Below are positions 23,652 through 50,451 of a stretch of 64,000 bases of DNA, in pieces (position 1 is the first letter of the stretch; every line of letters begins with the position of its first letter). Source of the stretch: Escherichia coli (lineage in GTDB: Bacteria > Pseudomonadota > Gammaproteobacteria > Enterobacterales > Enterobacteriaceae); assembly GCF_022846255.1 (NCBI RefSeq), contig NZ_AP025682.1. The stretch is one strand, 5' to 3'. The notes beneath the pieces were generated by a model that saw nothing but the letters and a program-made list of their open reading frames with translations, was not told the origin of the DNA and did no database searches. The position numbers and the translations under genes were made by a program.

Positions 23652-23658
23652 AGGTCAA

Positions 23659-27839: not shown

Positions 27840-28370
27840 ATCGATAATACGCGCGTATAAGTTCACATCATCATAGGCATCATTCAGGAACTCAGCCTGT
27901 TTAAGGCAACCTTCAAGGATAAAACCATTGCGCAACGCTACCTGGTTGCTTTGCGGATTGTCCACCCGACATTTGATCACGAAGCGTCTAAGTTCACCAG
28001 ACTGAGCGTAATGATGAATCAATGCCTGCAGCGCCTGAGAAATGATCCCCTGCCCCTGATGAGATTCGTCCAGCCAGTAGCCGATTTCAGCGGTTTTATT
28101 CAGTGGTTCAATACGATTAAACGAGATAACGCCGATAAGTTCATCTTCTTTGAAAATCATGAACATTTTGGCATAGCCGCGTTGATGCAACATTACATTG
28201 CCCTGCACTGTTTTTCGCGTGTCCTCTTCACTTTGAACAAACTGCGGCCAGTTTAGCGACTGCTGTAACCAGGTTCTATTTTTACAGATTAACTGATAAA
28301 GAGGTGTGACATGACTTTCTGCAACAGCATGTAATTCAAGTGATTCGCTTACTTTTATCGTTTCGGTCAT
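27831..28370 (-). CDS. rimL: ribosomal protein L7/L12 serine acetyltransferase RimL (179 aa)
   Basis: ORF track 27831..28385; start placed at [16 protein letters not shown]; GNAT motifs. Confidence 0.9.
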
Positions 28371-28432
28371 CTTATCTCCAGTCAATCCATGCAGTTGTTA
28401 AAAAAGCCGCCTGGCTGGCGGCTTAGGAAAGT

Positions 28433-28657
28433 TTACACCTCTTTGACGCTCTCCTGCTGCAGGATTTTGAGCATCTCATCTTTTAACTGTAGCTTTTGTT
28501 TTTTCATGCGGACCACTTCCGCATTGTACCCTCGACCGTTGGAACCTTCCTTTCTGGCAATTTCATGATCAAGTTTATTGTGTTTATCGAACAAGGACAT
28601 AAAGCGAGGATTTTCGTTTTTCAGACGGGATATTAAATCTCGATATTCTGGAAACAT
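28433..28657 (-). CDS. ydcH: YdcH (DUF465) small protein, 74 aa
   Basis: ORF track 28433..28663; start placed at MFPEYRDLISRL. Confidence 0.85.
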   Translation of the reverse strand: MFPEYRDLISRLKNENPRFMSLFDKHNKLDHEIARKEGSNGRGYNAEVVRMKKQKLQLKDEMLKILQQESVKEV

Positions 28658-28796
28658 ACGCACTCCCTGTTAGTGGCTGACAAGGTGTATCTGAAATACA
28701 CACCATCAGATTACTCATTTAACTTAGGGAAAAATGCGAGCGGGATCGTGTTTAACCAGACGGCACCTCCCGAAGAAGATGCCGAAGAAAAAACGA

Positions 28797-30452: not shown

Positions 30453-30676
30453 ACCTGAAAGTGAGTCCTTCTGGTGTTGTGAATGGTCCCGCGCTGGTCG
30501 TTTTCAGCGGCAAGAAAGTGCTTATTTATGACCGCTCACTCTAGACAATATTTATTAATAATCCAATTGTTGAACTGAGAGAATATGCATAAATCGGCAA
30601 TTTTTTTATGTCGATGGGATGAGCCTGATTCGTTTGTAAAATCAGGCAAATTTTTGCAAAGGCGGATGGTCAGAAT

Positions 30677-32020: not shown

Positions 32021-32236
32021 AGTGTCTGCCTCCAGTGGTCAGTAATCTGGAGTGTAGGTAACCGCATTCACTCCGGCGGGAAGAATTTACAAACTGTGAT
32101 CTCGCCGCGAAAACATCAATATTATCCATTTTGCTGTAACATAATTGCTTTAATTGTTAATAATATTTTGCAATCAAGTTATCATAATCAAACAACTTCA
32201 CTTGTCAGCGACACCGCTTCGTTTTTAACATCGCTT

Positions 32237-33160
32237 ATGGAAAAAAATAGTCTGTTTAGTCAGCGCATCCGTTTGCGCCACCTTCATACATTCGTAGCTG
32301 TCGCACAACAAGGAACTTTGGGGCGCGCGGCTGAAACCCTTAATTTGAGTCAACCTGCGCTCTCTAAGACATTGAATGAACTGGAGCAGCTGACGGGCGC
32401 TCGCTTGTTTGAGCGTGGTCGTCAGGGGGCGCAACTTACCTTACCCGGCGAACAATTTTTAACGCATGCAGTCAGAGTACTTGACGCCATCAACACTGCC
32501 GGACAGTCGCTTCATCGTAAAGAAGGTCCTAATAATGATATCGTCAGGGTTGGTGCACTACCTACTGCGGCACTAGGGATATTACCTTCGGTTATAGGTC
32601 AGTTTCATCAGCAACAAAAAGAGACGACCTTGCAAGTTGCGACAATGAGTAACCCTATGATTCTGGCGGGTTTAAAAACCGGGGAAATCGATATCGGCAT
32701 TGGTCGGATGTCAGATCCTGAACTGATGAACGGGCTTAATTACGAACTGCTGTTTCTTGAATCGCTGAAGCTGGTTGTCCGCCCTAATCACCCGCTACTT
32801 CAGGAGAACGTAACGCTAAGCCGGGTGCTGGAATGGCCGGTCGTTGTATCACCAGAAGGCACTGCGCCACGCCAGCATTCAGATGCATTAGTGCAGAGCC
32901 AGGGATGTAAAATTCCTTCGGGTTGTATCGAAACGCTGTCTGCTTCGCTATCTCGTCAACTTACGGTTGAATACGACTACGTGTGGTTTGTCCCTTCTGG
33001 CGCTGTAAAAGACGACCTGCGTCATGCCACGCTGGTGGCCCTGCCTGTTCCGGGACATGGTGCAGGCGAACCGATTGGAATACTGACCCGCGTAGATGCG
33101 ACGTTCTCTTCTGGTTGCCAGTTGATGATTAACGCTATTCGAAAATCAATGCCGTTCTGA
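32237..33160 (+). CDS. ydcI: LysR-family transcriptional regulator YdcI (307 aa)
   Basis: ORF track 32096..33160; start placed at MEKNSLFSQRIRLRHLHTFVAVAQQGTLGRAAETL (ATG 32237). Confidence 0.9.
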   Translation: MEKNSLFSQRIRLRHLHTFVAVAQQGTLGRAAETLNLSQPALSKTLNELEQLTGARLFERGRQGAQLTLPGEQFLTHAVRVLDAINTAGQSLHRKEGPNNDIVRVGALPTAALGILPSVIGQFHQQQKETTLQVATMSNPMILAGLKTGEIDIGIGRMSDPELMNGLNYELLFLESLKLVVRPNHPLLQENVTLSRVLEWPVVVSPEGTAPRQHSDALVQSQGCKIPSGCIETLSASLSRQLTVEYDYVWFVPSGAVKDDLRHATLVALPVPGHGAGEPIGILTRVDATFSSGCQLMINAIRKSMPF

Positions 33161-33197
33161 AAGGTGAAGGGATCTGTCGATCCCTCCTTTAACATTT

Positions 33198-34838
33198 TCA
33201 CACCGTAGCGAAACTAACTGGTTCACCCGCTCCGCGAGGTACTGCCGACACGGAATGTTTGTTCAGACGGAATACGTCCACCGCCTCAGTTAATCGTGCA
33301 GCCTGTTCTTCAAGGGACACCGCCGCTGCTGAGGCTTCTTCTACCAGAGAAGCATTCTGTTGCGTCACCTTATCCATTTCAGAAATCGCCTGGCTAACCT
33401 GCGTTATGCCTCTACTTTGTTCATCCGAGGCGGCGGCGATTTCCTGCATGATATGTGTGACACTCGCGACGGCATCAACAATAGTGCTCATGGTTTTCCC
33501 TGCCGTTGCCACCTCATCCGACCCCAGGTCAATTAACCTGACTGATTCACTGATCAAGCCTTCAATCTCTTTCGCCGCCTGAGCGCTGCGGCTTGCGAGT
33601 GTCCGTACTTCGCTGGCGACAACGGCAAATCCACGCCCTTGCTCACCCGCTCGCGCGGCTTCAACGGCAGCATTCAGTGCCAGAATATTCGTCTGGAAAG
33701 CAATACTGTTGATGACGGCGGTGATCTCAGAAATTTTCTTCGAACTCGTGGAGATAGCGCCCATCGTTTTTACTACACCGGAAACCGTCTGCCCGCCATT
33801 GCAGGCTTTAATAGAAGCCTCTTGCGCCAGTTTGCTGGCATGATGCGCGTTATCCGCATTCTGTTTCACCGTCGCAGTGAGTTGCTCCATGCTGGCGGCA
33901 GTTTGTTCAATTGCCGCCGCTTGTTCTTCAGTGCGAGATGAAAGGTCCGCATTGCCAGCGGAAATTTCGCTGGTGCCACGATAAATCTCTTCCGCGCCCT
34001 GTCGAACGGTCCCTACAGTCATCCCCAGTGAATGCTGCATTTGCTGTAAATGACGACTTAAGCGACCGATTTCATTACGACCCGCCGGTTCATCATTCAT
34101 CGTCAGATCGCCACTGGCGATTTTTTCAATCCGTTGTGCGGCATGTTGCAGTGGACGAATGACGATCCGACGTAGCACTATAAATGTTATCAGCGTCATG
34201 ACCAGGGCAAGCACAAACGCGCCAATCATGAACATCCCACCCAGGCGGGTGCGCTGATGGGCCAGTTCCGCCAGTTGGTTGGCTCTGGTGCTACGTATCT
34301 TAACGGCTTTGTTCAAAATATCGGTATAAGCATTATCCAGCGGTCGGATCTGCTCACTTTCATGATTGATAATCGCTTCAAACATGCCATTTTTGGCATA
34401 TTTCAACATCGGTTGCATACCCGTGATATAAGCCTGGAAGCGTTGATTTAATTCAGTGTCGAGGGCTTCATCAGCAGGTGTTTTCACCGACCGATTCTGA
34501 TAAGCACGATAACCTTGCTGCGACTGTTTAATCTCCGATTCGGCTTGCGCAATATTTCGCTTCATTGCTTCCATTTCCGCAATACGACTCGCTGCCCCGG
34601 CCTGAATCATATTGATCCGGGCTGAACGCAAAAAATCTGAACTGTTCGCTAACCCGGTCCGAATCTCAATCTCCGCAGTAACATCACGCTGATCGCGATC
34701 GGCCTGCCAGAGGAAATAGCCAGCCAGAGCAGAACTTAATGCGAATAGAACTAAGATACCGCCAAGAATGCAGGCAAATAACGGAACCAGCCTGATGTGA
34801 TGCAAAAAACCTAATCGCTGTGAGGGAGTTGTATTCAT
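33198..34838 (-). CDS. trg: methyl-accepting chemotaxis protein III (ribose/galactose), 546 aa
   Basis: ORF track; periplasmic sensor, HAMP and highly conserved MCP signalling domain. Confidence 0.93.
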
Positions 34839-35133
34839 TACCGTTGTCTCTCGTCCAGGTTTACTCCTGATAGAAAGTCATCGGCACTTGACGGTAATTA
34901 CTTATGACCAAAAACCTCTTTGCGTCACATTTTTACAACAATTATGGCAGAGAAGAATAATGCCATTGGAATGAAGAGAGTAACGAATGATTAAACTGGC
35001 AAACCCGAATGACGAAAAATTCTGGAAAACAGCACGCAATTTCGTCAGGTGATTATTTTCGTCCCTAAGGAAACCACATAGGATGCTCACGGGTGCCTGA
35101 GACTTTCTGTTTTCAGGCTAACCGGGAATCAGA

Positions 35134-35178
35134 AAGACGAAGGCCCCGACCGATATTTCTATCAACCGAGGCCAACGA

Positions 35179-35189
<11 letters not shown>
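35134..35189 (-). ncRNA. sokB: SokB antisense RNA of the hokB/mokB type I toxin locus (position approximate)
   Basis: Placed antisense across the mokB start by analogy with hok/sok loci and remembered K-12 layout; ends not determined from sequence. Confidence 0.3.
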
Positions 35190-35386
<197 letters not shown>

Positions 35387-35457
35387 GGGCAAGCGCGGGG
35401 ATTTTCCCCGCGCATCTGACTAGCAGATTCATTTTCTCATGGCACCCCTTTTACACT

Positions 35458-35631
35458 TCAGTTAGTGCATGTTTTTTTCGATGCACTAATAGAACCATCA
35501 TTACAGACAAATTTGCCGCCTGCCGTACAGTGTGAGATCCCCCCTTTCGAACCAGAACAGGGTTTGCGCCCGGCATCGGCATAAAAGGAAACAAGCGTTC
35601 CCATAACCAGGATAAGCGCCAGTTTTTTCAT
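35458..35631 (-). CDS. ydcA: YdcA small secreted Cys-containing protein (57 aa)
   Basis: Hand translation from ATG 35631-35629 with GGAGG RBS: MKKLALILVMGTLVSFYADAGRKPCSGSKGGISHCTAGGKFVCNDGSISASKKTCTN; below ORF-track cut-off. Confidence 0.8.
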   Translation of the reverse strand: MKKLALILVMGTLVSFYADAGRKPCSGSKGGISHCTAGGKFVCNDGSISASKKTCTN

Positions 35632-35801
35632 ATAACCTCCATGATTTATCGAATCTTATGTTCGATTTGAACGTTATACGCTGGTTTATTTTGATACCGT
35701 TGATGAGATCAAAGATCGGGTGAATTGATTAAAGATAAGCCAGATGGACGTATAGACAAGGATTATGGTTTTATTTGTCATACAAATAAATATAATAGGC
35801 G

Positions 35802-35865
35802 CTTCCGATGTAGGCCCGTATTCTTCGCCTGTACCACGGGTCGGTTTTAGTACAGGCGTTTTCTT
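35802..35865 (+). ncRNA. rydC: RydC Hfq-dependent small RNA
   Basis: CTTCCGATGTAGGCCCGTATTCTTCGCCTGTACCACGGGTCGGTTTTAGTACAGGCGTTTTCTT matches the RydC pseudoknot sRNA; TATAAT -10 box at 35791-35796; lies between ydcA and cybB. Confidence 0.85.
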
Positions 35866-35875
35866 TAAATATCCT

Positions 35876-36406
35876 TCAGGAACGTTTACGCGGCATCATG
35901 CGTAGAAGTGTGTTGTCCTTCCAGAAATAGTGGTGTGCCAGTGCAGCCGCAGCGTGCAACCCGATGACAAAATATCCCAGATTCGCCAGCGTTTCATGCC
36001 ACGACTTTAAGCTATCAACCCGTTCGAAATTGGCCTCTGAAGCGTAAGGCATCGTCAAACCAAACGCAAACCACGGGTTGCCCCGGTTATACATCATCAC
36101 CAAACCAATCACTGGCAGCGCAATAAACAGGAGATAAATCACCAAATGGCCCAAATGCGCCAGTCCCGTCATCATCGGTTTTGGCTTAGGTATAATCGGC
36201 GGGGTTGGGCATTTCAGCCTTAACAAAAGACGAACCACCATCAGTACGAGAATTGAGATGCCACAGGAAACATGAATCATGTTGATGAGGGGCCGATCGC
36301 TACGTGGGAAGAAACCACGAAACTCCATTGCGCAATACGCTACGATAACCAGCAAAAAGACCAGCCAGTGAATGCTGATTTGTAACCTTGAGTATTTATT
36401 TCCCAT
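35876..36406 (-). CDS. cybB: cytochrome b561 (176 aa)
   Basis: ORF track 35876..36442; start placed at M(G/E)NKYSRLQISIHWLVFLL; conserved His ligands. Confidence 0.9.
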   Translation of the reverse strand: MGNKYSRLQISIHWLVFLLVIVAYCAMEFRGFFPRSDRPLINMIHVSCGISILVLMVVRLLLRLKCPTPPIIPKPKPMMTGLAHLGHLVIYLLFIALPVIGLVMMYNRGNPWFAFGLTMPYASEANFERVDSLKSWHETLANLGYFVIGLHAAAALAHHYFWKDNTLLRMMPRKRS

Positions 36407-36594
36407 AACATTTCCTGCTTTAACATAATTTGCCGTTAACATAACGGGCTTTTCTTAAAATTTCATTAAATATTGTTCACCTGTTTTCAGTACGTTACGT
36501 TTCGCTGCAAGAATGTAGATTGCCCATCCCGCCATCCTGGTCTAAGCCTGGAAAGGATCAATTTTCATCCGAACGTTCCTGACAGGAGAAGACC

Positions 36595-37596
36595 ATGAGT
36601 AAAGTTGGTATTAATGGTTTTGGTCGTATCGGTCGACTGGTGTTGCGTCGATTACTTGAAGTCAAAAGCAACATAGACGTTGTCGCTATTAATGATCTCA
36701 CTTCCCCAAAAATTCTCGCCTACCTGCTGAAACATGATTCAAACTACGGACCGTTCCCCTGGAGCGTTGATTATACGGAAGATTCACTTATCGTTGATGG
36801 GAAAAGTATCGCGGTTTACGCCGAAAAAGAGGCTAAAAATATTCCGTGGAAAGCGAAAGGCGCAGAAATCATTGTCGAATGTACAGGCTTTTATACCTCC
36901 GCCGAGAAATCGCAGGCGCATCTTGATGCTGGCGCGAAGAAGGTGTTGATTTCCGCCCCTGCCGGTGAAATGAAAACCATCGTTTATAACGTCAATGACG
37001 ACACTCTGGATGGCAACGACACCATTGTTTCCGTGGCGTCATGCACCACTAACTGCCTTGCGCCGATGGCCAAAGCCTTGCATGACAGTTTCGGGATAGA
37101 AGTCGGCACGATGACAACCATTCATGCCTATACCGGCACCCAGTCACTGGTGGATGGCCCACGTGGTAAAGATTTACGTGCTTCACGCGCAGCGGCAGAA
37201 AATATCATTCCCCACACTACGGGGGCGGCAAAAGCCATTGGTCTGGTGATCCCGGAACTGAGCGGCAAACTGAAAGGTCATGCGCAACGCGTGCCGGTGA
37301 AAACAGGTTCGGTCACTGAACTGGTGTCGATTCTCGGAAAAAAAGTGACTGCCGAAGAGGTGAACAACGCGCTTAAAAAGGCGACAAACAATAACGAGTC
37401 ATTTGGTTATACTGATGAAGAAATAGTCTCTTCCGATATCATTGGCAGCCATTTCGGTTCGGTGTTTGATGCCACGCAAACGGAAATTACCGCCGTGGGC
37501 GATTTACAACTGGTGAAAACGGTCGCCTGGTACGATAACGAATATGGCTTCGTCACACAGCTTATTCGCACCCTCGAAAAATTCGCTAAACTCTGA
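36595..37596 (+). CDS. gapC: glyceraldehyde-3-phosphate dehydrogenase C, intact (333 aa)
   Basis: ORF track; uninterrupted GAPDH with [12 protein letters not shown] motif and catalytic [10 protein letters not shown]. Confidence 0.92.
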
Positions 37597-37637
37597 CGCG
37601 CACAGGCGGAGGAAAAAACCTCCGCCTCTTTCACTCA

Positions 37638-39077
37638 TTACGACTGTAAATAAACCACCTGGGTCTGCAGATATTCATGCAAGCCATGTTTACCATCTGC
37701 GCCGCCAATACCGGATTTACGCCATCCAGCGTGGAAGCCTTGCATAGCTTCGAAGTTTTCACGGTTGATGTAAGTTTCACCAAACTTCAGCCCTTTAATG
37801 GCTTTCATCGCGACGTTCAGATTTTGGGTATAGATTGATGAGGTCAGGCCGTAATCACTGTCATTAGCCATTGAGATAGCCTCTTCCAGCGTGTCAAATG
37901 CGACCACCGGCAGAACCGGGCCAAAGGTTTCCTCATGCATAATCGACATTTCCTGGCGAACATCCAGCAGCAATGTCGGCGGATAATAATATCCTTTCCC
38001 CTCTACCGCTTTGCCACCCAACGCCACTCTCGCCCCTTCTTCTACTGCGCGCGCCACTTTTTGCTCAACCCTTTCCAGCGCCGCGGCGTTAATCAACGGT
38101 CCCATCGCAATGTCGTTGCGTTCAGCAGGGTTACCAAATTGAACCGCCTGCATCGCTTCACCCAGCCGATTGACGAACTGATCATAAATGCTTTTCTGTA
38201 CATAAACACGTTCTGCACAGTTACACACTTGCCCACTATTAATGACGCGTGAATCAACGATGGCTTTGACTGCCAGTTCAAGATCGGCATCGTCCATTAC
38301 GATAGCCGGTGCTTTACCCCCCAATTCCAGGCACACTTTGGTGATGTTTTTCGCCGCAGTCGCCATAATCTTTTCACCTGCAGAGACGCTGCCTGTCATA
38401 CTGACCATTGCGACCTTTGGGTTACCCGCCAGTTCTTGCCCAACGGTTTCACCACGCCCGAGTACAAGGTTAAACACGCCGCGCGGAAGGCCTATTTCAT
38501 CAACGATTTTGGCGAATGCAATCGCATTGTTTGGCGTAAATTCACTGGGTTTAATGACGATGGTATTACCGGTCAAAAGAGCGGGAGCCATTTTGCGGGC
38601 AATGAGGAAGAACGGAAAGTTCCACGGCAGAATGCCGGTAGTCACGCCAAGCGCACGTTTAAACAGAAGAATATTTTCTCCTGGACGATCGCTTTGAATA
38701 ATCTCGCCCTCGTAACGCCGTGCCCACTCCGCCATATAATCGATATAGTCCGCAGTAAAAGCCACTTCGACTTCAGCCAACTGCTGGATCTTGCCCCCTT
38801 CTTCGACAATCAGCGCACTGATTTCACTGGCACGTTCCCGGATCCCGGCGGAGATTTTGCGCAACCAACTGGCGCGTTCAATAGCAGGCAACGCTTCCCA
38901 TTCTGGTTGTGCACGTTCTGCTGCATCGATTGCCTTACGGGCATCCTCGGCCTGACCATCGGGAATGCGGGAAATGACAGCCTCTGTAGCAGGGTTTTCC
39001 ACATCAATCCATGCGTCTCCACGCCAGGTAACAAACTGTCCATCGATATACATAGGATGTTGAACGGGTACTGACAT
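37638..39077 (-). CDS. aldA: lactaldehyde dehydrogenase (479 aa)
   Basis: ORF track; aldehyde dehydrogenase family. Confidence 0.93.
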   Translation of the reverse strand: MSVPVQHPMYIDGQFVTWRGDAWIDVENPATEAVISRIPDGQAEDARKAIDAAERAQPEWEALPAIERASWLRKISAGIRERASEISALIVEEGGKIQQLAEVEVAFTADYIDYMAEWARRYEGEIIQSDRPGENILLFKRALGVTTGILPWNFPFFLIARKMAPALLTGNTIVIKPSEFTPNNAIAFAKIVDEIGLPRGVFNLVLGRGETVGQELAGNPKVAMVSMTGSVSAGEKIMATAAKNITKVCLELGGKAPAIVMDDADLELAVKAIVDSRVINSGQVCNCAERVYVQKSIYDQFVNRLGEAMQAVQFGNPAERNDIAMGPLINAAALERVEQKVARAVEEGARVALGGKAVEGKGYYYPPTLLLDVRQEMSIMHEETFGPVLPVVAFDTLEEAISMANDSDYGLTSSIYTQNLNVAMKAIKGLKFGETYINRENFEAMQGFHAGWRKSGIGGADGKHGLHEYLQTQVVYLQS

Positions 39078-39273
39078 GGGCGACTCCTGTGATTTACATG
39101 TTTGTTTTTGGTAAATTTATTGTTAATTAACATCAATTATCAGAGAGACGGCATCGTGAAAGGACAATTCTGTGAAGGGCTTCATAAAAACAAGTGTAAA
39201 AGGAATTAAAGGCAGAAATAAAAGTCAGAAGTCATGCCCGTTTGCAAACAATTGGTTCACGAACGGGCAATTT

Positions 39274-40074
39274 TTAACGTAACGAGCGACTTTCCATCGC
39301 CTCGATGAGCACCGCATCGTGTTTCAGCGTTTGCCATGCCTGGATGACTTCTGCCGGAAAATCAACGTGAACGATAAAATCTCGCCCGCGGGGGCCGTAG
39401 CCATCGCTATCATCGCGTAAACGCGGCAGCTCGCCAGTGAGTAGCGATAGATAACGCTCAACCGGCCATAATCCTTGCAACGGATTAACAAAGATTACAC
39501 TGTCTGCGTTATTTCCTAACTGAGGAACGAATCCGGGATAACTTAACCAGCGTGGTGCATCGGGATTATCCCCGGTTATACGGCGGAACGTCGCCATCGT
39601 GCGCCGCTGCATGGTGGGGTCCTGAACAACGATAGCCGTATGAACTCGTTCTACGGCCTGATTCAATAGCGCGATGCTAAAGCGTGCGTTTTCACCGCAG
39701 TTTGTTGACTGGTCTTCAATCCAGATTTTTTCATGCGGAATATGCCAGAACTGATGAGCGATATCCGCCAGGATGGTAGCTTCAGCTCTGCCAGTGGTGC
39801 GGATAGTGTTGTAGTGTGGATGCTGTGCGATGGCGCTATACAAAAAAGTTGTCGAGTGACCGATACCACCACTAATCAGTAAAGGAATTTGCTGATCGCG
39901 GGCAATCTTACATGCCGCATCGATAGTCGGCATAACCGCATTGCCTGCAAGGATCACGCAATCGGCCTGATACGGCACCTCACCGGAGAAATCATCCTGC
40001 GCCAGCCACTGTCCGATAACATTTATGGCATCTATGGTTGCCGGCGAAAGCGTCGGAAACGGGGTAATATTCAT
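39274..40074 (-). CDS. ydcF: YdcF (DUF218), 266 aa
   Basis: ORF track; matches YdcF. Confidence 0.9.
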
Positions 40075-40289
40075 GGTTCCTCCTTATCGTTCCCTTAAGA
40101 ATACTGCGTGAGATAATAGTGAGAAGCGGAGCACTCTGAAAGGAGGAAGTCGTATTTCCTTAACTGCCACTCCGCAAGCCTGACATATTTTTTAAGGAAA
40201 TGCTGTAGATAAACATTATTCATCTTGCAGCAGAGAATTGTATTTTTCTGAACTCCTGAATTTTTTCCCTTATCGTTTTTAGAATTAAT

Positions 40290-40320
40290 AAAAAACCCGG
40301 CGCTAAATGCTTACCGGGTT
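40290..40320 (-). terminator. rho-independent terminator downstream of hrpA
   Basis: On the minus strand a CCCGGTAAGCATTTAGCGCCGGG hairpin is followed by a T-run, immediately after the hrpA stop. Confidence 0.55.
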
Positions 40321-40346
40321 TTAGATTTATCAGGCAAATAGCAGTG

Positions 40347-43300
40347 TTAACCGCTAATCTGCTCCATCGCCTGCAAAATACGCTTATCCGAAATCGGATA
40401 AGGCGTGCCAAGTTGTTGAGCGAAGTAACTAACGCGCAGCTCTTCTATCATCCAGCGGACCTCTTTCACGTCTTCATCCTCACGACGTGCAGGCGGTAGT
40501 TTGTTGATCCATTGCTGCCACGCCTGCTGGACGTTTTCGACTTTCAGCATCTGAGCACGGTCGCGATGTGGATCAATCGCCAGTTTTTCCAGTCGTTTTT
40601 CAATCGCCTGCAAATAACGCAGCGTGTCGCCCAGCCGTTTGAAGCCGTTACCAGTGACAAAACCGCGATACACCAGCCCGCCCATCTGCGCTTTAATGTC
40701 AGAAAGCCCCAGCGCCATGGTCATATCCACCCGCCCTTTCAGACGTTTGTTGATATTGAACACCGCAGTGAGGATTTGCTCGACCTGCTTCGCAATATCC
40801 ACCACTGTGTCGTTCAGTTCAGCGCGGACTTTTTCATGCAGCGCAGCAAAGCCTTCTTCCGTCCAGACCGGGCCACCATTGGCGTCGATCAGTTGATCCA
40901 CACCGCAGGAGATACAGTCGTCGATCAGCTCCAGCACTTTGCCATACGGGTTAAAGTACAGCCCCAGCTTGGCTTTGTTTGGCAACTTCTCATGCAAATA
41001 TTTGATTGGCGAGGGAATATTCAGCAGCAGTAAACGGCGAAGACCGTTCCACATTGCCTGCTTCTGTTCCAGCGGGTTATCAAACAGTTTGATCGCTACG
41101 CTGTCACGCTCATCCACCAGCGCCGGCCACGCCTTCACTTTGTAGTTGCCGCGCTTCTGCTCGTAGCTTTCCGGCAGTTGACCAAAACTCCAGATATGTA
41201 AACCGCTCTGCTCGATACCGTCATCCGCCACGGCAGACAGCGTTTCCTGCACTTTGCCTTTCAGGGCGTCTTTCAGATCCTGTAATGAGCGCCCTTCTTT
41301 TAGCTTCTTGTTTTTGTCATCCACCACGCGGAAAGTGATTTTCAGGTGATCGGGCACCTGATCCCAGTGCCAGTCTTCGCGGTCAACGGTGACGCCAGTC
41401 ATCCGCCGTAACTCTCGTTCAAGGCTGTCGAGCAACGGCAATTCCAGCGGTGTGACGCGGCCTAAAAACGCTTCGGCGTAGTTTGGCGCGGGCACAAAAT
41501 TACGGCGTACCGGCTTCGGCAGCGATTTAATCAGGGCGATGATCAGCTCACGACGCAGACCGGGGATCTGCCACTCAAACCCACTCTCCTCAACCTGGTT
41601 AAGTAACGGCAGCGGGATATGCACGGTCACACCGTCAGCATCCGCACCGGGCTCAAACTGATAGCTCAAACGCAGTTTGAGATTGCCCTGATGCCAGAAG
41701 TTCGGGTAATCCAGTTTGCTGATTTTTTCCGCCCCTTCTTTGATCAACATGCTCTTTTCAAAGTTGAGCAAATCAGGCGTTTCGCGGCTGACTTTTTTCC
41801 ACCAGCTGTCGAAGTGACGTGCGGAAATCACATCGTGGCTGATGCGCTGGTCGTAGAACTCAAACAGCGTTTCGTCATCCACCAGAATATCGCGGCGACG
41901 TGATTTGTGTTCCAGCTCTTCTACTTCCGCCCGTAGTTTCAGGTTTTCACGGAAGAATGCGTGACGCGTCTGCCAGTCACCTTCCACCAGCGCGTGGCGA
42001 ATAAAGAGTTCACGACATAACGCCGGATCGATCTGGCTGTAGTTGACCTTACGCGCAGCAACAATCGGCAACCCGTAAACAGTGACTTTTTCCGTTGCCA
42101 TCACCGCGCCCTGCGCCCGTTCCCAGTGCGGTTCGCTGTAGGTGCGTTTGATTAAATGCTGAGCGACAGGTTCCACCCATTCTGGATCGATGCGTGCCGC
42201 AATGCGCCCCCACAGGCGGCTGGTTTCTACCAGTTCCGCCACCATTACCCATTTCGGCGGCTTTTTGAATAAACCAGAACCGGGGAAGATGGAGAAACGC
42301 GCGTTACGTGCGCCGGTATATTCTTGTTTATCGGCATCTTTCATGCCGATATGCGAAAGCAAACCGGTCAGCAACGCAATGTGAATTTCGCGATAATCCG
42401 CCGGTTCGCTGTTAACCGGAATGCCAAGTTCTTTCACCACCTGGCGCAACTGGGTGTAGATATCCTGCCATTCGCGCACGCGCAGATAGTTGAGATAATC
42501 AGTACGACACAGGCGACGGAAGGCGTTTGAAGAAAGCGCCTTTTGCTGCTCGCCAAGATAATTCCACAGATTCACAAATGCCAGGAAGTCAGACTCTTTG
42601 TCGTGGAAGCGACGATGTTTTTCGTCAGATGCCTGCTGTTTATCCATCGGACGCTCACGCGGATCCTGAATGGAGAGCGCGGACGTGATAATCATCGCCT
42701 CACGCACGCAGCCATGTTTTTGCGCTTCCAGCACCATTCGCGCCAGACGAGGATCGACTGGCAGTTGCGAGAGCTGGCGACCGAGCGGCGTCAGTTTATA
42801 GGCGCTGGCCTGTTCATCAGTGGTGATCGCGCCCAGCTCTTCGAGCAGACGCACGCCATCCTGGATATTGCGTTTATCCGGTGCTTCGACAAACGGGAAT
42901 GCGGCGATATCGCCCAAGCCCAGTGCGGTCATCTGCAAAATAACCGAGGCCAGGTTAGTACGCAGAATTTCTGGGTCGGTAAACTCCGGGCGCGAGAGGA
43001 AATCGTCTTCGGAATAGAGACGAATACAGATCCCTTCTGACACACGACCGCAGCGGCCTTTACGCTGATTAGCTGAAGCCTGCGAAATTGGCTCAATCGG
43101 CAAACGCTGCACTTTGGTGCGATAGCTGTAGCGGCTGATACGCGCCGTACCTGGGTCGATAACGTATTTAATCCCCGGTACGGTCAGCGAGGTTTCCGCG
43201 ACGTTAGTCGCCAGCACAATGCGCCGTCCGCTGTGCGACTGGAAGACGCGGTTCTGCTCGCTGTTGGAAAGCCGTGCATAAAGCGGAAGAATTTCCGTAT

Positions 43301-44249
43301 GGCGTAAGTTCAGCTTGTTCAGCGCATCGGCGGTATCGCGAATTTCTCGCTCGCCGCTCATAAAAATCAGAATGTCGCCAGGGCTTTCCTGGCTCAGTTC
43401 ATCTACGGCATCGAAAATCGCCTGCAACTGGTCGCGCTCGGTGTCATCAGCTTCTTCAACAATCGGGCGATAGCGCACTTCCACCGGATAGGTCCGACCG
43501 GAGACTTCGATAATCGGCGCATTATTAAAGTGGCGCGAAAAGCGTTCCGGGTCGATAGTCGCGGAGGTGATAATAATTTTTAGGTCAGGACGCCGCGGCA
43601 GCAACTCTTTCAAATAGCCGAGGAGAAAATCGATATTCAGGCTGCGTTCGTGCGCTTCGTCAATAATGATGGTGTCGTACTGCATCAGCAGGCGGTCTTG
43701 CTGGATCTCTGCCAGCAGGATGCCGTCGGTCATCAGCTTGACCATCGTGTTATCACTGACGTGATCGCTGAAACGCACTTTGTAACCGATGCAACCGCCC
43801 GGCTCCGTTTTCAGCTCTTCCGCAATACGGTTCGCCACCGTTCTTGCCGCCAGGCGACGCGGCTGGGTATGGCCGATCAGCCCTTTAATCCCGCGCCCCA
43901 GCTCCATACAGATTTTCGGTAGCTGAGTCGTTTTACCGGAACCCGTTTCCCCGGCGACGATCACCACCTGGTGGTCACGAATCGCTTCGAGAATGTCCTG
44001 CTTTTTCTGACTAACCGGCAAATTGTCCGGGTAAGTAATCTCCGGTCGTGCCGCTTCACGCAGCAGGACTTTCCCTGCCGCATGGTCAATCTCTTTCGCC
44101 ATCTCCTGGAAAATGGCTTGTTGTGCATCAGGATTTTTAACCTTCTTCACACCGTGCAGACGGCGTAAAAAACGCTGTCTGTCGCGCAGCATCAGCGAAT
44201 CCAGCCGCTGCTGCAAGTCAGCAAAGGTCAATTTTTGTTGTTCTGTCAT
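40347..44249 (-). CDS. hrpA: ATP-dependent RNA helicase HrpA (DEAH-box), 1300 aa
   Basis: ORF track; Walker A GETGSGKTTQ, DEAH box. Confidence 0.95.
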   Translation of the reverse strand: MTEQQKLTFADLQQRLDSLMLRDRQRFLRRLHGVKKVKNPDAQQAIFQEMAKEIDHAAGKVLLREAARPEITYPDNLPVSQKKQDILEAIRDHQVVIVAGETGSGKTTQLPKICMELGRGIKGLIGHTQPRRLAARTVANRIAEELKTEPGGCIGYKVRFSDHVSDNTMVKLMTDGILLAEIQQDRLLMQYDTIIIDEAHERSLNIDFLLGYLKELLPRRPDLKIIITSATIDPERFSRHFNNAPIIEVSGRTYPVEVRYRPIVEEADDTERDQLQAIFDAVDELSQESPGDILIFMSGEREIRDTADALNKLNLRHTEILPLYARLSNSEQNRVFQSHSGRRIVLATNVAETSLTVPGIKYVIDPGTARISRYSYRTKVQRLPIEPISQASANQRKGRCGRVSEGICIRLYSEDDFLSRPEFTDPEILRTNLASVILQMTALGLGDIAAFPFVEAPDKRNIQDGVRLLEELGAITTDEQASAYKLTPLGRQLSQLPVDPRLARMVLEAQKHGCVREAMIITSALSIQDPRERPMDKQQASDEKHRRFHDKESDFLAFVNLWNYLGEQQKALSSNAFRRLCRTDYLNYLRVREWQDIYTQLRQVVKELGIPVNSEPADYREIHIALLTGLLSHIGMKDADKQEYTGARNARFSIFPGSGLFKKPPKWVMVAELVETSRLWGRIAARIDPEWVEPVAQHLIKRTYSEPHWERAQGAVMATEKVTVYGLPIVAARKVNYSQIDPALCRELFIRHALVEGDWQTRHAFFRENLKLRAEVEELEHKSRRRDILVDDETLFEFYDQRISHDVISARHFDSWWKKVSRETPDLLNFEKSMLIKEGAEKISKLDYPNFWHQGNLKLRLSYQFEPGADADGVTVHIPLPLLNQVEESGFEWQIPGLRRELIIALIKSLPKPVRRNFVPAPNYAEAFLGRVTPLELPLLDSLERELRRMTGVTVDREDWHWDQVPDHLKITFRVVDDKNKKLKEGRSLQDLKDALKGKVQETLSAVADDGIEQSGLHIWSFGQLPESYEQKRGNYKVKAWPALVDERDSVAIKLFDNPLEQKQAMWNGLRRLLLLNIPSPIKYLHEKLPNKAKLGLYFNPYGKVLELIDDCISCGVDQLIDANGGPVWTEEGFAALHEKVRAELNDTVVDIAKQVEQILTAVFNINKRLKGRVDMTMALGLSDIKAQMGGLVYRGFVTGNGFKRLGDTLRYLQAIEKRLEKLAIDPHRDRAQMLKVENVQQAWQQWINKLPPARREDEDVKEVRWMIEELRVSYFAQQLGTPYPISDKRILQAMEQISG

Positions 44250-45055: not shown

Positions 45056-45066
45056 GATTTATGATG

Positions 45067-45093
45067 CCTCCCACGAAAGTGGGAGGTTTTTTT
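45067..45093 (+). terminator. rho-independent terminator of azoR
   Basis: CCTCCCAC-GAAA-GTGGGAGG hairpin followed by TTTTTTT, 12 nt after the azoR stop. Confidence 0.65.
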
Positions 45094-45095
45094 AT

Positions 45096-45962
45096 TTAAC
45101 CCGCCTTTTGCGCAATACTGTCCAGCGTTGCCAGCACGTCATCCGTTAGCACTAATTCATCGGACGCCATATTCTCCCGCAGATGCCCCACCGAAGAGGT
45201 GCCAGGAATCAACAAAATATTCGGTGAACGTTGTAACAGCCACGCCAGCGCCACCTGCATTGGTGTTGCACCCAGGCTCGTAGCAACATCGGAAAGCGTG
45301 GAGGATTGCAGCGGCGTAAAGCCCCCGAGCGGGAAGAACGGCACGTAGGCAATGCCATCACGAGCCAAAGCATCAATCATTGCGTCATCAGCACGGTGGG
45401 CAATGTTGTATTCGTTCTGCACGCAGACGATTTCGGCAATCTTTCGCGCCTCTGCAACCTGCGTCGGTGTGACGTTACTCAGGCCAATATGTTTTACCAG
45501 GCCTTGTTGTTGCATCTCCGCCAGCACTGTCAGGCTGGCCTCAATCGATCCTTCCGCTGGGCCATGACCATCCCCCATCATAACGCGCAGGTTAACCACA
45601 TCCAGTACGTCCAGGCCGAGATTACGTAGATTATCGTGTACCGCTTTTTGCAGCTCTGCCGGAGAAAATGCGGGTAACCAGGAAGCGTCCTCTCCACGCC
45701 GCGCACCAATTTTAGTGACAATTGTCAGGTCGTCAGAGTAAGGATAAAGCGCTTCGCGGATAATCTGATTGGTGACGTGCGGACCATAAAAGTCGCTGGT
45801 ATCAATATGATTGACGCCCAATGCCAGCGCCTCGCGCAGCACGGTTATAGCGACGTGGCGATCTCTTGGGGGGCCAAAAACCCCAGAACCAGCCAGTTGC
45901 ATCGCGCCATAACCAAGACGGTTAACGGATTTTGTACCGAGAGTAAATGTGTTGCTGCTCAT
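45096..45962 (-). CDS. ydbC: putative NAD(P)-dependent oxidoreductase YdbC (aldo-keto reductase family), 288 aa
   Basis: ORF track; AKR-family sequence. Confidence 0.85.
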   Translation of the reverse strand: MSSNTFTLGTKSVNRLGYGAMQLAGSGVFGPPRDRHVAITVLREALALGVNHIDTSDFYGPHVTNQIIREALYPYSDDLTIVTKIGARRGEDASWLPAFSPAELQKAVHDNLRNLGLDVLDVVNLRVMMGDGHGPAEGSIEASLTVLAEMQQQGLVKHIGLSNVTPTQVAEARKIAEIVCVQNEYNIAHRADDAMIDALARDGIAYVPFFPLGGFTPLQSSTLSDVATSLGATPMQVALAWLLQRSPNILLIPGTSSVGHLRENMASDELVLTDDVLATLDSIAQKAG

Positions 45963-46162: not shown

Positions 46163-46783
46163 CTAAAAATTAGAACGTTCAGCATCTGGACGTGACTGTT
46201 TCGGTCGCAGATTCTCATCAAATACCAGACGCTGCCTGCCAGGTTCAACTTCCCGCAATGGCTCGACTTGATGCAACGTCTGCTTACAACGTGTCACCAG
46301 CACCTGATACTCATGCGTGCCCTGCTTTTTCCATGCCAGCTCCTGCTCACTAAGTTCACGAATCGCTTTTGCCGGGCTGCTGACAATCAGATAATTAGCA
46401 GGCATTTCTGCTTTGGCTTTCACAAATGCGGATGCGCCAACAATACTGTTCTCACCAATCACCGCACCGTCCATCACTACCGCGTTCATTCCCACTAACG
46501 CATTGCGGCGGATAATGCAGCCGTGAAGGATAGCGCTATGACCAATATGCCCATCTTCTTCAACGACAGTATCCTGCCCGGGAAAGCCGGGCATAACGCA
46601 ATTATCCTGAATGTTCGCGCCATCTTTCACCACGATACGACTAAAATCACCTCGCAGGCTGGCATTTGGTCCAACGTAAACGCCCTTGCCGAGAATAACA
46701 TCGCCGATCAATACCGCTGTCGGATGAACAAAACTCTCTTCTGTTACAATCGGAGTCAGACCGTCTATCTGATAAATTGGCAT
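46163..46783 (-). CDS. paaY: hexapeptide-repeat thioesterase / gamma-carbonic-anhydrase-like protein, PaaY-type (206 aa)
   Basis: ORF track; [11 protein letters not shown]... with left-handed beta-helix repeats; GGAGG RBS; the rest of the paa operon is absent from this window. Confidence 0.75.
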
Positions 46784-46818
46784 AACACCTCCTGTTCAAT
46801 ATTCAAACCGCCAAAACG

Positions 46819-47124
46819 TTGAAAATACAGGCTACCCGGCGAAGGCTGCTCACCGACCGAGGTTTCACCTTTTTCACTAACGAACGCTACAGCAGCAGGC
46901 GCTACGCGCTGATAAAATTTGCCGATAAAGGTTTGGTGGTCGCGCAATATATTCGTAACCGTCGTCTCGATTTTTGTGCAGATGCGATTCGCCATGCCGC
47001 AGATGATGAAAAACTGGCAGGCATTGGCTTTCATTGGGGATTTTCCGACCAGAGTCATTTTTCAACGGTATTTAAACAACGCTTTGGGATGACGCCAGGC
47101 GAGAATCGGCGTAAATTCCGCTAA
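46819..47124 (+). pseudogene. feaR: AraC-family regulator, C-terminal HTH fragment (likely feaR remnant)
   Basis: 101-codon ORF ending in an AraC-type second HTH (GFHWGFSDQSHFSTVFKQRFGMTPGENRRKF); no N-terminal domain; adjacent to ydbL as feaR is in K-12. Confidence 0.5.
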
Positions 47125-47161
47125 CTAATTCGCGTTGCATGTACAGCAACGCGAATTAGTT
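47123..47161. repeat. perfect 16-bp inverted repeat (hairpin) spanning the feaR-fragment stop
   Basis: AACTAATTCGCGTTGC-ATGTACA-GCAACGCGAATTAGTT; no flanking U-tract on either strand. Confidence 0.6.
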
Positions 47162-47295
47162 AAAACAGATATTTGACTATGCATTTTTCAGGGCAAAAGA
47201 CAATTTGGCAGGAATTTTTGAATAATCATCTTATTTCCGGAAAATAGATTAATCGCCTTCTCCTGTAGCGTTATCCCGATATTGCGGTTTTGCTA

Positions 47296-47622
47296 TTAAA
47301 ATTTTCGCACCCATTTACCGTTTATCCCTTGTACATATTCCCCGGGTTTGGCCCGTTCTACGAGCTTTTGCCCGGCGAGTTTCGCGATATCATCCACCGA
47401 CACATTATTTTGCTTTGCCAGTTGTTGATAGCTCGCTTTACGTTCGGCATTGATGTCGGTTACTAATTTCTCAGTTTCAGCATCTGTTTTCAGCGCAACC
47501 AGATAACCATAAAATGTTTCGCCTACCCGCCCCTGAGTTCTGGCTTCATCCAGAGTCAATGCCATTACATTGCTGCTTACCAAGCCAACAAGAAATGCAC
47601 AAAGAAGTAATGTTCTTTTCAT
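47296..47622 (-). CDS. ydbL: YdbL (DUF1318) periplasmic protein, 108 aa
   Basis: ORF track 47296..47703; start placed at MKRTLLLCAFLVGLVSSNVMA signal peptide with GAGGTG RBS. Confidence 0.88.
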   Translation of the reverse strand: MKRTLLLCAFLVGLVSSNVMALTLDEARTQGRVGETFYGYLVALKTDAETEKLVTDINAERKASYQQLAKQNNVSVDDIAKLAGQKLVERAKPGEYVQGINGKWVRKF

Positions 47623-47629
47623 CATCACC

Positions 47630-47815
47630 TCAAAAAAGATCGCTACGGGTCTCAAGCAGCTCTTCGACATCTTTGTCTGCCTTGATGATGATCTCATGCT
47701 CAATTTTAACGTTCATATTGATAGTGATCGGTTCCTTAGGTGCAGCGACTTCAATGCGAGGCGTACAGCCAACCAGCATAAAAGATGACGTCAACGCAGC
47801 CAGTAAAATTTTCAT
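47630..47815 (-). CDS. ynbE: YnbE lipoprotein (61 aa)
   Basis: ORF track; lipobox LVGC. Confidence 0.88.
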   Translation of the reverse strand: MKILLAALTSSFMLVGCTPRIEVAAPKEPITINMNVKIEHEIIIKADKDVEELLETRSDLF

Positions 47816-50451
47816 TGTTTATCCTCACACTCTTTTCCTTGCGGACAGTCATTTCCCGGTAGACGCGCGTTCTGCTCCAGCCATGCCTGGAGATTATCGC
47901 CAAAGCGTAAACTGCGCCACAGCGTAAAAATATTCTCTTCATGATGGTAATTAATATTTACCGTACCGCTTTTACCATCAACGCGACTGGTACCTGTAAT
48001 ATTGGCCTGCATGGTTAATAAACCGAGATTATCTAAATTAATTTTTGTCGATGAACGGCTAATTTCCATATAGCGCAACCAGTTAATTGCTGAACCCGCG
48101 GTCATATTGTCTTTCACCACCGCATCTGCGGTGTCTTTATCCAGCCGCAAGGTCATCGGCCCGCTATTTGCCAGCCAGCCGTCTTTCACAATCCATTTTT
48201 CGTTGTTTAGCCATAACGGCAATGCACCACTAAATGCCCCGGACATGGCGAATTGTTTCGGATTGACGGCGCTAACCAGTTCGCTGGAGGAAAGATTATT
48301 CAGCCGCAACAGCGCCGGGTCATGTTGCGGCATACGTAATTGTTTCATCAGCACGTTACCGCCTAACACATCGACGCTAACATCAGTCAACAGCAATGGT
48401 TCTTCTTCAGTCCACGGATAACGCCCTTGCAAATCAGCCGTAATATTTTTCGCTGTAACCAGATTAATCACTTCGGCAATTCGCAACGTAACGGGACCGC
48501 GAGTCCCCAGATGCCAGGCTCCATCGGCAAAACGGAAAGGCAGGACAAAATCGACACCGTTAACCTGATTATCTGGCATCCAGGCACTACCGCCTTTCAA
48601 CACGCCGTGCCCTCCCGCGCGGAATCCTTGTTCGGGCGCTGCTGAAAATGCAACCTGAGCATACAGTTCACCATCGCGTAAGTTCATCTTCCAGTCGGGT
48701 GGCACCAACGGCTGGAATACAGTCAGTGATTGTTTAGGCCACCAGGCGTTACCGCGCAGACGAATACCGTCCCAGCGACCATTTACCCGAACCGGGCCAA
48801 TCTCACCAGCATGTAAATCGCCTTTAAAGAGGAAATACGTCGGATCGCGCCCATCGACGCTAAATTTTAAGGTTGATGGCGGTAACACACTGCCGCCAGT
48901 GAACAGCGTTTGCCCGGCGTCCAGTGACAGCGCGCCGCTGAAGGAGGGATGCTGTGCGTCACGTCCCCAGACGACGGGCTTGTCGAGAATTAATCGCGGC
49001 TTTTCTACCGTCATCGTACCGTATTGTAACTGGTCGAAACCGGTGGAGAGATCGGTCAGCGTAATCGTGCTGTCATGCCACTCACCTTTTCCTGCGACAT
49101 CCCAGGTGGCATTCATCGGTGTAAAACTCCCTTTTCCCCAGTAGCGCCACTGCCAGCGGCCAGCGTCAGGGAGAAAATCATTCGCCAGCCCATCCATATG
49201 CAGCACGAAATCGCCCAGTTCATTTTCATGCGCCTGCAAAATGGCCTGCAAACGTCCGTCAACACCACGTTGGGTGACTTTTACACCCGCTAAAGGCCAG
49301 CGGATTTCATCGATGTCCAGCGAATCAATGACTCTTCCCTTTGAACGAAGTAACGCGCCAGGCTCAAAGGTCAGCGTTGGGTCAGACAGACTTCCACTTA
49401 GCTGCGCAGGTAAACGGGCATATAAAATGAGGTCCGCCTGTTTCGCTTCACCGGTCAGCTGCAGAGGCAGCTGGCTGTTATCCATGCTTAATTTTCCTGG
49501 GCCAAAATTTAACACCGCGTTGCCTTTACCCGCTTGCCCCTGGGTCAGCACACTCAGTCGCCCGCTGACCAGAGCGTTCTCGAGCCCTGCCTGCCAGTTG
49601 TCGACTTTAACACCCAGTCGGCCACTCAAAGGAAAACCTGCATACGGCCAGCTCCAGCGACCATCGCTTACGGTCAATTGTTGACGAGTAATTTGCCACG
49701 GCAAATCGAGCAACGGATCGCCGTTATCCCGTGCCAGCACAATCAATTGCCCGCTATTTTCCTGCCAGTCCAGCTCGGCATCCACCAGTGACGGTTCCTG
49801 CGGCAAGTTTAACGTCGCAGTAGCATGACCACTTACCGGAAGTCCATCCGGCACGAGCGGCATAGTAAATTCCCCCACCAGTTTTACCGGCGGCTGATTT
49901 TCAAACGCGGCGACATCCAGTTCGCTGACTGTAAGTTGTTGCCCTTTCAGCTGGCCTTGAAATTTAACTTTTTCGCCCTGATAACGCAGTTGCTGGATAT
50001 CGGAGGTTAATGCGAGAGAGAGTTTTCCCTGCCATTCCTGCCAGGGAGAAAAAATCAGTTTATCGATATTGATCCAGGTGTTAGGCAGCATGGACTGCCA
50101 CTGCGCGAGGGTTTTTGGAGCGGCTGGCGATTGTTCCGCCTGCGGCAATTTCGCCAGACAAGCAGAATCAAGTTCTACCGTGCCGACGTTCAATAACCAG
50201 CGGCTGGGATGTGAAAGGCTGGCGTTGGTGATATGCGCAAGCTGACAATCTCCCACCAGATAACGGAGATCGGGGATGATTAAACCTTTACGCGTAATGC
50301 GTGGGCTTTCATCTAATGCAATACGTGTCCCGAGCGGTAGCCAGATGCCCGCCAGCGTGGGAACCCACAGCCCGAGCGTCATCAGCAGCGTCAACGGCAC
50401 AAGAATAATCAGTAATAACAGCGCGAGAACGGCTTTATATTTACCCAGCAT
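47812..50451 (-). CDS. ydbH: YdbH, AsmA-like large envelope protein (879 aa)
   Basis: ORF track; N-terminal membrane anchor; operon with ynbE-ydbL. Confidence 0.9.
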   Translation of the reverse strand: MLGKYKAVLALLLLIILVPLTLLMTLGLWVPTLAGIWLPLGTRIALDESPRITRKGLIIPDLRYLVGDCQLAHITNASLSHPSRWLLNVGTVELDSACLAKLPQAEQSPAAPKTLAQWQSMLPNTWINIDKLIFSPWQEWQGKLSLALTSDIQQLRYQGEKVKFQGQLKGQQLTVSELDVAAFENQPPVKLVGEFTMPLVPDGLPVSGHATATLNLPQEPSLVDAELDWQENSGQLIVLARDNGDPLLDLPWQITRQQLTVSDGRWSWPYAGFPLSGRLGVKVDNWQAGLENALVSGRLSVLTQGQAGKGNAVLNFGPGKLSMDNSQLPLQLTGEAKQADLILYARLPAQLSGSLSDPTLTFEPGALLRSKGRVIDSLDIDEIRWPLAGVKVTQRGVDGRLQAILQAHENELGDFVLHMDGLANDFLPDAGRWQWRYWGKGSFTPMNATWDVAGKGEWHDSTITLTDLSTGFDQLQYGTMTVEKPRLILDKPVVWGRDAQHPSFSGALSLDAGQTLFTGGSVLPPSTLKFSVDGRDPTYFLFKGDLHAGEIGPVRVNGRWDGIRLRGNAWWPKQSLTVFQPLVPPDWKMNLRDGELYAQVAFSAAPEQGFRAGGHGVLKGGSAWMPDNQVNGVDFVLPFRFADGAWHLGTRGPVTLRIAEVINLVTAKNITADLQGRYPWTEEEPLLLTDVSVDVLGGNVLMKQLRMPQHDPALLRLNNLSSSELVSAVNPKQFAMSGAFSGALPLWLNNEKWIVKDGWLANSGPMTLRLDKDTADAVVKDNMTAGSAINWLRYMEISRSSTKINLDNLGLLTMQANITGTSRVDGKSGTVNINYHHEENIFTLWRSLRFGDNLQAWLEQNARLPGNDCPQGKECEDKQ

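Follow-up and report, generated by a model that had tools for sequence, protein, structure and literature searches.

What remains at a chromosomal site when a catabolic pathway is lost, and does a single gene left standing there still have a function? The question is raised by a stretch of 64,000 nucleotides, referred to here as the window, in which a PaaY-type gene lies beside a C-terminal-only fragment of an AraC-family regulator that is followed in turn by ydbL. A sequence-only reading had taken this arrangement for a deletion scar that left paaY without its operon, given that in K-12 feaR, feaB, tynA and paaZ through paaX lie between ydbL and paaY. The K-12 MG1655 record indeed has this order, ydbL-feaR-feaB-tynA-paaZ-paaABCDEFGHIJK-paaXY-(ydbA)-pdxI (b1383-b1406), and the neighbourhood of the scar in the window, hrpA-azoR-pdxI on one side and ydbL-ynbE-ydbH-ldhA on the other, is that of an Escherichia coli-type chromosome. 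We consider it highly probable that the locus is the scar of a single inherited deletion of ~17.75 kb, and that the paaY gene left behind is a most likely non-functional, neutrally evolving relic. The scar is real and ordinary: it is widespread, already annotated and situated at a locus known to be variable. The additions made here are modest and consist of the precise junction, which falls inside paaX, a paaX 3′ stub within the scar, a second loss allele and evidence that paaY is decaying.

Identity of the genes flanking the scar

The open reading frame at 46163-46783 (minus strand, 206 aa) scored 364 bits on the NCBIfam equivalog model for PaaY, a 2-hydroxycyclohepta-1,4,6-triene-1-carboxyl-CoA thioesterase (TIGR02287, cutoff 319.6), whereas its second-best NCBIfam match, CaiE, reached 278.7 bits, under that model's own cutoff of 305; on the gamma-carbonic-anhydrase model the score was 134.8 bits, under 250. 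The protein has the hexapeptide repeats (Pfam PF00132 Hexapep, E = 7.5e-15) of a left-handed beta-helix, with 8gpm and 1v3w among its PDB homologues. It occupies the place of K-12 paaY: it directly follows paaX, which it overlaps by 19 bp, and precedes pdxI, with which it is collinear, and the DNA covering paaY and the 3′ part of paaX is 94.3% identical to K-12. Judged by the curated cutoffs and by synteny, the gene is the paaY orthologue and neither caiE nor yrdA.

The regulator fragment can be named as well. Residues 33-101 of the open reading frame at 46819-47124 (plus strand) match positions 235-303 of the 303 in the equivalog model NF007243 (E = 4e-34) for FeaR, the AraC-family activator of tynA and feaB, and the stretch also matches Pfam HTH_18 and HTH_AraC. 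The FeaR score of 118.4 bits lies below the cutoff of 199 and marks a fragment: the last 68 of 301 codons and the stop codon are left, at 46918-47124, and they cover only part of the AraC-type DNA-binding domain rather than a full-length FeaR. This stub differs from K-12 feaR at 6 of 207 bases within a block that is 96.2% identical to K-12. It has the same 3′ end and stop codon and keeps the convergent arrangement with ydbL (47296-47622, minus strand; DUF1318, Pfam PF07027), the intact right-hand flank, which is syntenic with K-12 and E2348/69. Identity and arrangement together indicate that the stub is the remnant of feaR itself and of no other regulator. The 101-aa 'AraC' open reading frame as a whole, which begins with TTG, is no gene; it is an antisense paaX/feaR chimera in which 33 antisense paaX codons stand in frame with the feaR stub.

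The sequence-only reading had allowed for a hexapeptide gene that is a CaiE or YrdA paralogue, or a stub that is the end of a different regulator, in which case their adjacency would be unrelated to paa and fea. Almost nothing is left of the probability of this scenario. CaiE is the second-best match, and the stub gives weak matches to other AraC-family models, but the PaaY score is above its cutoff while the CaiE score is below its own, the DNA is 94-97% identical to K-12 paaY and feaR in exact synteny, and a paaX stub lies between the two. On cutoffs, K-12 identity and synteny, both identities proposed at the outset stand and the scenario is already refuted.

Anatomy of the scar

BLAST alignment to K-12 gave two collinear blocks flanking one breakpoint. 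The first pairs window positions 46192-46916 with K-12 1465062-1464338 and contains paaY and the last part of paaX; the second pairs 46918-48500 with K-12 1446584-1445002 and contains the feaR 3′ end, ydbL, ynbE and ydbH. The breakpoint is thus at window 46916|46918, corresponding to K-12 1464338|1446584. The ~17.75 kb missing relative to K-12 extends from feaR codon ~233 to the last ~50 codons of paaX and comprises the 5′ part of feaR, feaB, tynA, paaZ, paaA-K and the 5′ part of paaX. The absence of the rest of the paa/fea/tynA region is thereby borne out, and the genes identified over the 64 kb of the window include no further paa gene.

The distance of ~35 bp first given between paaY and the AraC fragment is correct for the open reading frame boundaries but not for homology. 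The feaR homology starts at 46917/46918, which puts ~134 bp between it and the paaY start codon. This interval holds a paaX 3′ remnant (46765-46917, minus strand; last ~50 codons and stop) that aligns with K-12 up to 1464338. As in K-12, the remnant overlaps the paaY start by 19 bp. The paaY ATG is retained at 46781-46783; the paaX stub supplies its Shine-Dalgarno sequence, a perfect AGGAGG at a spacing of 5 nt. On the left, the flank is formed by intact pdxI (ydbC; 45096-45962, minus strand), 200 bp from the paaY stop codon. In addition to the operon, the window lacks two K-12 segments: ydbA, which with its IS2 and IS30 spans ~8.9 kb there, and ydbD-ynbABCD (~7.2 kb). The absence of the first brings paaY this close to pdxI, and that of the second makes azoR abut pdxI.

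The junction and its distribution

The truncated paaX and feaR stubs are joined at one point, which supports the proposed deletion scar and rules out an empty ancestral site at which the paa island was later inserted in K-12. The junction reads GATAAA|(G/A)TTTGCC, and at its base 46917 the window has A, where five aligned complete-genome carriers have G. The two K-12 breakpoints share an imperfect AATGTT microhomology (paaX ...GATAAATGTTGA..., feaR ...CCGAATGTTTGCC...), and a clean microhomology join would yield GATAAATGTTTGCC. The five aligned carriers, E2348/69, A25, 042, ST648 and 2012C-4221, share GATAAAGTTTGCC, which is one T short, and the window reads GATAAAATTTGCC, in which the same T is missing and position 46917 carries the further G-to-A change. 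A clean microhomology-mediated deletion is ruled out because the observed junction is one T short of its product; to judge from these bases, the join is imprecise or was modified afterwards. The G-or-A pattern matches all 11 carrier loci fetched, including six public contigs that encode the window's exact PaaY.

The frequency of this allele (allele 1) was assessed in 5,426 complete E. coli genomes with a 431-bp probe across the junction, consisting of the last 84 bp of paaY, the paaX 3′ end and the feaR 3′ end. The probe aligned contiguously in 259 genomes (~5%), including E2348/69, 042 and ST648, and 1,243 genomes match no part of it. The same junction is also present in 6 metagenome or read-archive contigs. 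An assembly artefact is ruled out by the contiguous junction in 259 complete genomes and by a contig from an independent run (Logan DRR322657) with 100% identity to 6.6 kb of the window. A scan of GTDB species representatives for the junction gave no matches. The best match of the window to any complete E. coli genome is 98.4-98.7% identical.

In EPEC E2348/69 (E2348C_RS08255, paaY; RS08250, partial PaaX; RS26835, partial HTH), the junction and scar are the same; the region is 98.4-99.1% identical to the window and shares its azoR-pdxI adjacency, although an ISEc13 element lies between azoR and pdxI. EAEC 042 (EC042_RS08085, RS27765) and ST648 have the same junction and scar anatomy but differ in a K-12-like flank and a normal 196-aa PaaY. 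The remnants are not new to annotation. In E2348/69, 042, ST648, A25 and 2012C-4221, RefSeq/PGAP lists a 153-bp 'PaaX, incomplete, missing N-terminus' and a 207-bp 'helix-turn-helix domain-containing protein, incomplete', both as partial pseudogenes, and PGAP calls paaY intact in every allele-1 genome among those listed.

A second loss allele was found at the same locus, for example in strain AVS0467 (NZ_CP124357.1). Its breakpoints are K-12 1464721|1446629, with ~18.09 kb lost and a 4-bp overlap, and it occurs in ~558 complete genomes (817 matched minus the 259 allele-1 carriers). The same pathway genes are gone and a feaR 3′ stub again lies next to ydbL. However, the breakpoints are independent, 252 bp of feaR are kept and paaY itself is cut to a ~329-bp 3′ stub. 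That the locus varies has been reported. According to Goldstone et al. (2016; PMC4951805), the paa locus forms a heterogeneous region that extends from ydbH-ynbE-ydbL to ynbCD-azoR and has undergone several internal deletions independently; Leimbach et al. (2017; PMC5422975) found the B2 and E strains in their panel to lack the paa determinant. The relevant passages of these two accounts do not describe the present paaX′|feaR′ junction or the condition of the orphan paaY, and searching the literature for the junction itself, or for an orphaned paaY, turned up no more than general accounts of locus variability.

Origin of the deletion

The course of events most consistent with these data is one illegitimate deletion of ~17.75 kb (K-12 ~1446586-1464337) that fused the paaX 3′ end to the feaR 3′ end. 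It removed the 5′ part of feaR, feaB, tynA, paaZ, paaABCDEFGHIJK, the 5′ part of paaX and, with it, the Px promoter that drives paaXY. The allele is inherited rather than private to the window strain. It leaves paaY as an intact open reading frame with a ribosome-binding site and without a recognisable promoter, most likely a neutral relic in the window lineage.

Could the identical junction instead have arisen repeatedly and independently, by a site-directed or microhomology-driven mechanism? The flanks give some reason to ask. Carriers fall into a rare flank haplotype (the window, E2348/69, A25 and CP090611) and a common one (042, ST648 and 2012C-4221), and the two are 5-6% divergent in either flank as far as the junction itself. 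In its paaX stub the 042 type is K-12-like, with 1 mismatch in 133 positions vs 7-8 in 133 for the window type. The imperfect AATGTT motif is moreover present at both K-12 breakpoints. Nevertheless, we give recurrence very little credence. All 11 of the carrier loci fit one junction pattern and the five aligned carriers share the missing T, a quirk whose recurrence would itself be improbable. A microhomology of 6 bp between sites 17.7 kb apart is no hotspot, and the other loss allele at this locus has different breakpoints. Mosaicism produced by recombination beside the junction is directly visible in A25, whose feaR-ydbL intergenic segment is identical to that of 042 while its paaY is E2348-like, and conversion of the flanks by intact-operon donors would naturally stop at the heterology boundary.

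Because the missing T is common to the carriers, one inherited or transferred event is favoured over recurrence, and an independent recurrent origin appears unlikely. A single origin implies that recombination converted the flanks as far as the heterology boundary. All six of the complete records that are at least 98.6% identical to the window-type paaY haplotype are deletion carriers; no intact-operon genome with that haplotype was found, the best being 96.4% identical. A more far-reaching version of the single-origin account, which we regard as doubtful, holds that allele 1 is one old deletion persisting as a polymorphism across deeply diverged backgrounds (E2348/69-like and 042/ST648-like), with flanks repeatedly converted up to the heterology boundary and with paaY kept in some backgrounds for an operon-independent thioesterase or gamma-carbonic-anhydrase-like role.

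Probable decay of the orphan PaaY protein

The condition of the gene was assessed against 120 PaaY cluster representatives (68-96% identical). Three substitutions in the window protein fall at positions without variation in this set: H65P (His in 119/119 representatives), G48S (Gly in 119/119) and G135S (Gly in 118/118). The first of these, at codon 65 (46589-46591, minus strand), is due to a mismatch at 46590 relative to E2348/69 and 042. His65 aligns without gaps to a histidine of PDB 8gpm, 8gpp and 1v3w, and the position also aligns to His65 of the Burkholderia pseudomallei gamma-carbonic anhydrase, in which His65, His82 and His87 bind the catalytic zinc (PMC9389205); PDB 7zw9 is among the structural homologues listed. 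The trimeric PaaY of E. coli contains both Zn and Ca (PMC9493321). The window protein shares with the gamma-carbonic-anhydrase/left-handed beta-helix family (PDB 8gpm, 1v3w and 7zw9, YrdA 3tio, CaiE) the fold, the hexapeptide repeats and the ligands His82 and His87, but has Pro in place of the third metal ligand, His65, which leaves the three-histidine metal site incomplete. The protein would thus be a PaaY orthologue by descent and probably not an active one.

A further change lies at the C-terminus. Alignment with K-12 and 042 reveals a 10-codon extension and new stop codon at 46163-46195 (minus strand), caused by a single-base stop-loss at 46194 (TAA to TCA); translation then continues into what is left of the 3′ end of ydbA, a deleted autotransporter gene, and gains 10 residues. 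E2348/69 and A25 share G48S, G135S and the stop-loss tail with the window. They differ in their paaY start, which is lost (ATG to AAG, M1K) where the window keeps ATG, and they carry A23E and D105V at invariant positions. The H65P substitution and the junction A are unique to the window relative to E2348/69, 042 and ST648. Since the exact 206-aa window protein is encoded on 19 public contigs, one of them the identical Logan contig, H65P is no sequencing error. In related metagenome contigs paaY and the scar are 100% identical throughout while the flanks differ.

The alleles of intact-operon genomes (K-12, B19374 and O169) have no changes at conserved PaaY positions, and the orphan PaaY of the 042/ST648-type carriers is nearly unchanged, with 0-1 substitutions at conserved sites. 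Within the window clade, paaY has accumulated 6 nonsynonymous and 2 synonymous substitutions, and dN/dS, based on these 8 substitutions only, is 0.9-1.5 vs ~0.1 between clades. With ~451 nonsynonymous and ~135 synonymous sites, the binomial probability of at least 6 nonsynonymous changes among 8 is ~0.004 if omega is 0.1. On the combined evidence of the loss of Px, of H65P, G48S, G135S and the stop-loss, of start-codon loss in the nearest relatives and of dN/dS ~1, the window paaY is most likely a promoterless relic whose product would be inactive or nearly so.

Expression and possible retention of paaY

The promoter that serves paaXY in E. coli, Px, is located upstream of paaX (PMC9493321). 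It is deleted in the window, together with the paa genes that normally accompany paaY. A consensus scan found no minus-strand sigma-70-like site between ydbL and paaY; the only minus-strand promoter-like site of the scan falls inside paaY itself. Transcription might still enter from the right, where ydbL is the last gene of ydbH-ynbE-ydbL and has the same direction as paaY. A perfect 17-bp inverted repeat with a 7-nt loop (47122-47162), which overlaps the feaR stop codon, is placed between these co-directional genes and paaY. The hairpin is strong on both strands, lacks a U-run and has a folding energy of -31.8 kcal/mol (z = -5.4) on the minus strand. Transcripts reading through from ydbL toward paaY would have to cross it before reaching the scar.

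One alternative, a role outside the operon, builds on such read-through. The orphan gene could have been kept as a general acyl-CoA thioesterase or for a gamma-carbonic-anhydrase-like function and be expressed from ydbH-ynbE-ydbL. Several observations agree with this: the reading frame is open and its Shine-Dalgarno sequence perfect, the upstream genes are co-directional and PaaY is almost unchanged in the 042/ST648-type orphans. The E. coli enzyme has broad acyl-CoA thioesterase activity and hydrolyses several CoA esters (PMC9493321), and gamma-carbonic-anhydrase activity is reported for Acinetobacter baumannii PaaY (PMC467105). An operon-independent role is thus conceivable, and in the 042/ST648-type carriers PaaY may be kept for some function, yet retention by selection seems improbable to us. 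The metal ligand lost through H65P is invariably present in 119/119 homologues, G48S and G135S alter invariant positions, the start codon is gone in sister lineages and dN/dS within the clade is ~1. The conservation in the 042 type is explicable by recent conversion of the flank from intact-operon alleles, as its paaX stub has 1 mismatch in 133 relative to K-12. Moreover, the gene is dispensable, given that the second deletion allele cuts it in half in ~558 genomes and that the probe has no match at all in 1,243 genomes.

Implications

The preferred account, one inherited deletion with paaY as its relic, has little significance beyond bookkeeping. With feaB, tynA and the paa catabolic genes gone, this locus should no longer allow the strain to break down 2-phenylethylamine or phenylacetate. 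In metabolic reconstructions, a phenylacetate pathway should not be deduced from a 'paaY' annotated as intact, since such a gene can be a relic that has lost its promoter and encodes a damaged active site. The locus also illustrates that E. coli has lost this pathway more than once: there are two or more independent deletion alleles, besides a class of genomes in which everything is missing. Finally, an identical junction within flanks that are 5-6% apart calls for caution against dating deletions by the divergence of their flanks.

Variation around the shared junction

The paa/fea deletion joining a paaX 3′ stub to a feaR 3′ stub (the scar) is shared by the window and the complete genomes of strains E2348/69, A25 and 042, and, as judged by sequence comparison, strain A25 is a recombination mosaic adjoining this scar. 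Its feaR–ydbL intergenic region (equivalent to window 47125–47295) has 0 mismatches in 171 positions to 042, against 7–8 to the window and E2348/69, while its paaY and paaX stub resemble those of E2348/69. Overlapping the feaR stop codon (window 47122–47162) is an inverted repeat with perfect 17-bp arms and a 7-nt loop, which forms a strong hairpin on either strand (z = −5.4 and −3.7), with no U-run. This hairpin may serve the convergent feaR and ydbL as a terminator in both directions or as an RNA-stabilizing element.

On the other side, further K-12 segments are missing from the window. Absence of ydbD–ynbABCD (K-12 ~1475018–1482254; window 45056–45165) leaves azoR abutting pdxI, whose final ~65 nt are divergent (~65% identity to K-12), and ydbA is missing together with its IS2 and IS30 (K-12 ~1465063–1474003; window 46170–46195). 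E2348/69 and A25 have both the missing segments and the divergent pdxI end in common with the window. In B19374 and O169:H41, ydbA is absent yet the paa operon is intact.

The public contig CBFFOQ010003094.1 (GCA_965643355.1; locus 1444–2866) carries the window's junction and an identical PaaY(H65P), the orphan PaaY with proline at a zinc-ligand histidine. Its feaR stub is shortened to 140 bp and is separated from ydbL by a 1.2-kb piece with 87% identity to K-12 ynbG–ydbA 5′, and ynbB′–ynbC follows pdxI in place of azoR. This arrangement could be a genuine rearrangement; the alternative is that the metagenome was misassembled here.

An independent loss allele

A second paa/fea deletion allele, independent of the window's, is carried by strain AVS0467 (NZ_CP124357.1, 2502–3080), where a 329-bp paaY 3′ stub is joined to a 252-bp feaR stub. 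The flank on the paaY side has only ~87% identity to K-12, and ydbL is split by IS1. The label ‘EntS/YbdA MFS transporter’ given to a neighbouring 8.6-kb ydbA-like gene appears to be an annotation error.

Lineage of the window

Across 18 kb of the window (e.g. 26000–44000), none of the 5,426 complete E. coli genomes exceeded 98.7% identity, so complete genomes sample the window's lineage poorly. Read archive run DRR322657 holds a contig identical to the window over 6.6 kb. Three stretches of the window (6869–8658, 22399–24147 and 33642–34976) are missing or IS-disrupted in E2348/69, which has IS-ridden remnants at these places. Among the sequence of this kind in the window are a complete gene for a GntR-type regulator, an ORF of 402 aa (22443–23651) and an intact trg (33198–34838).
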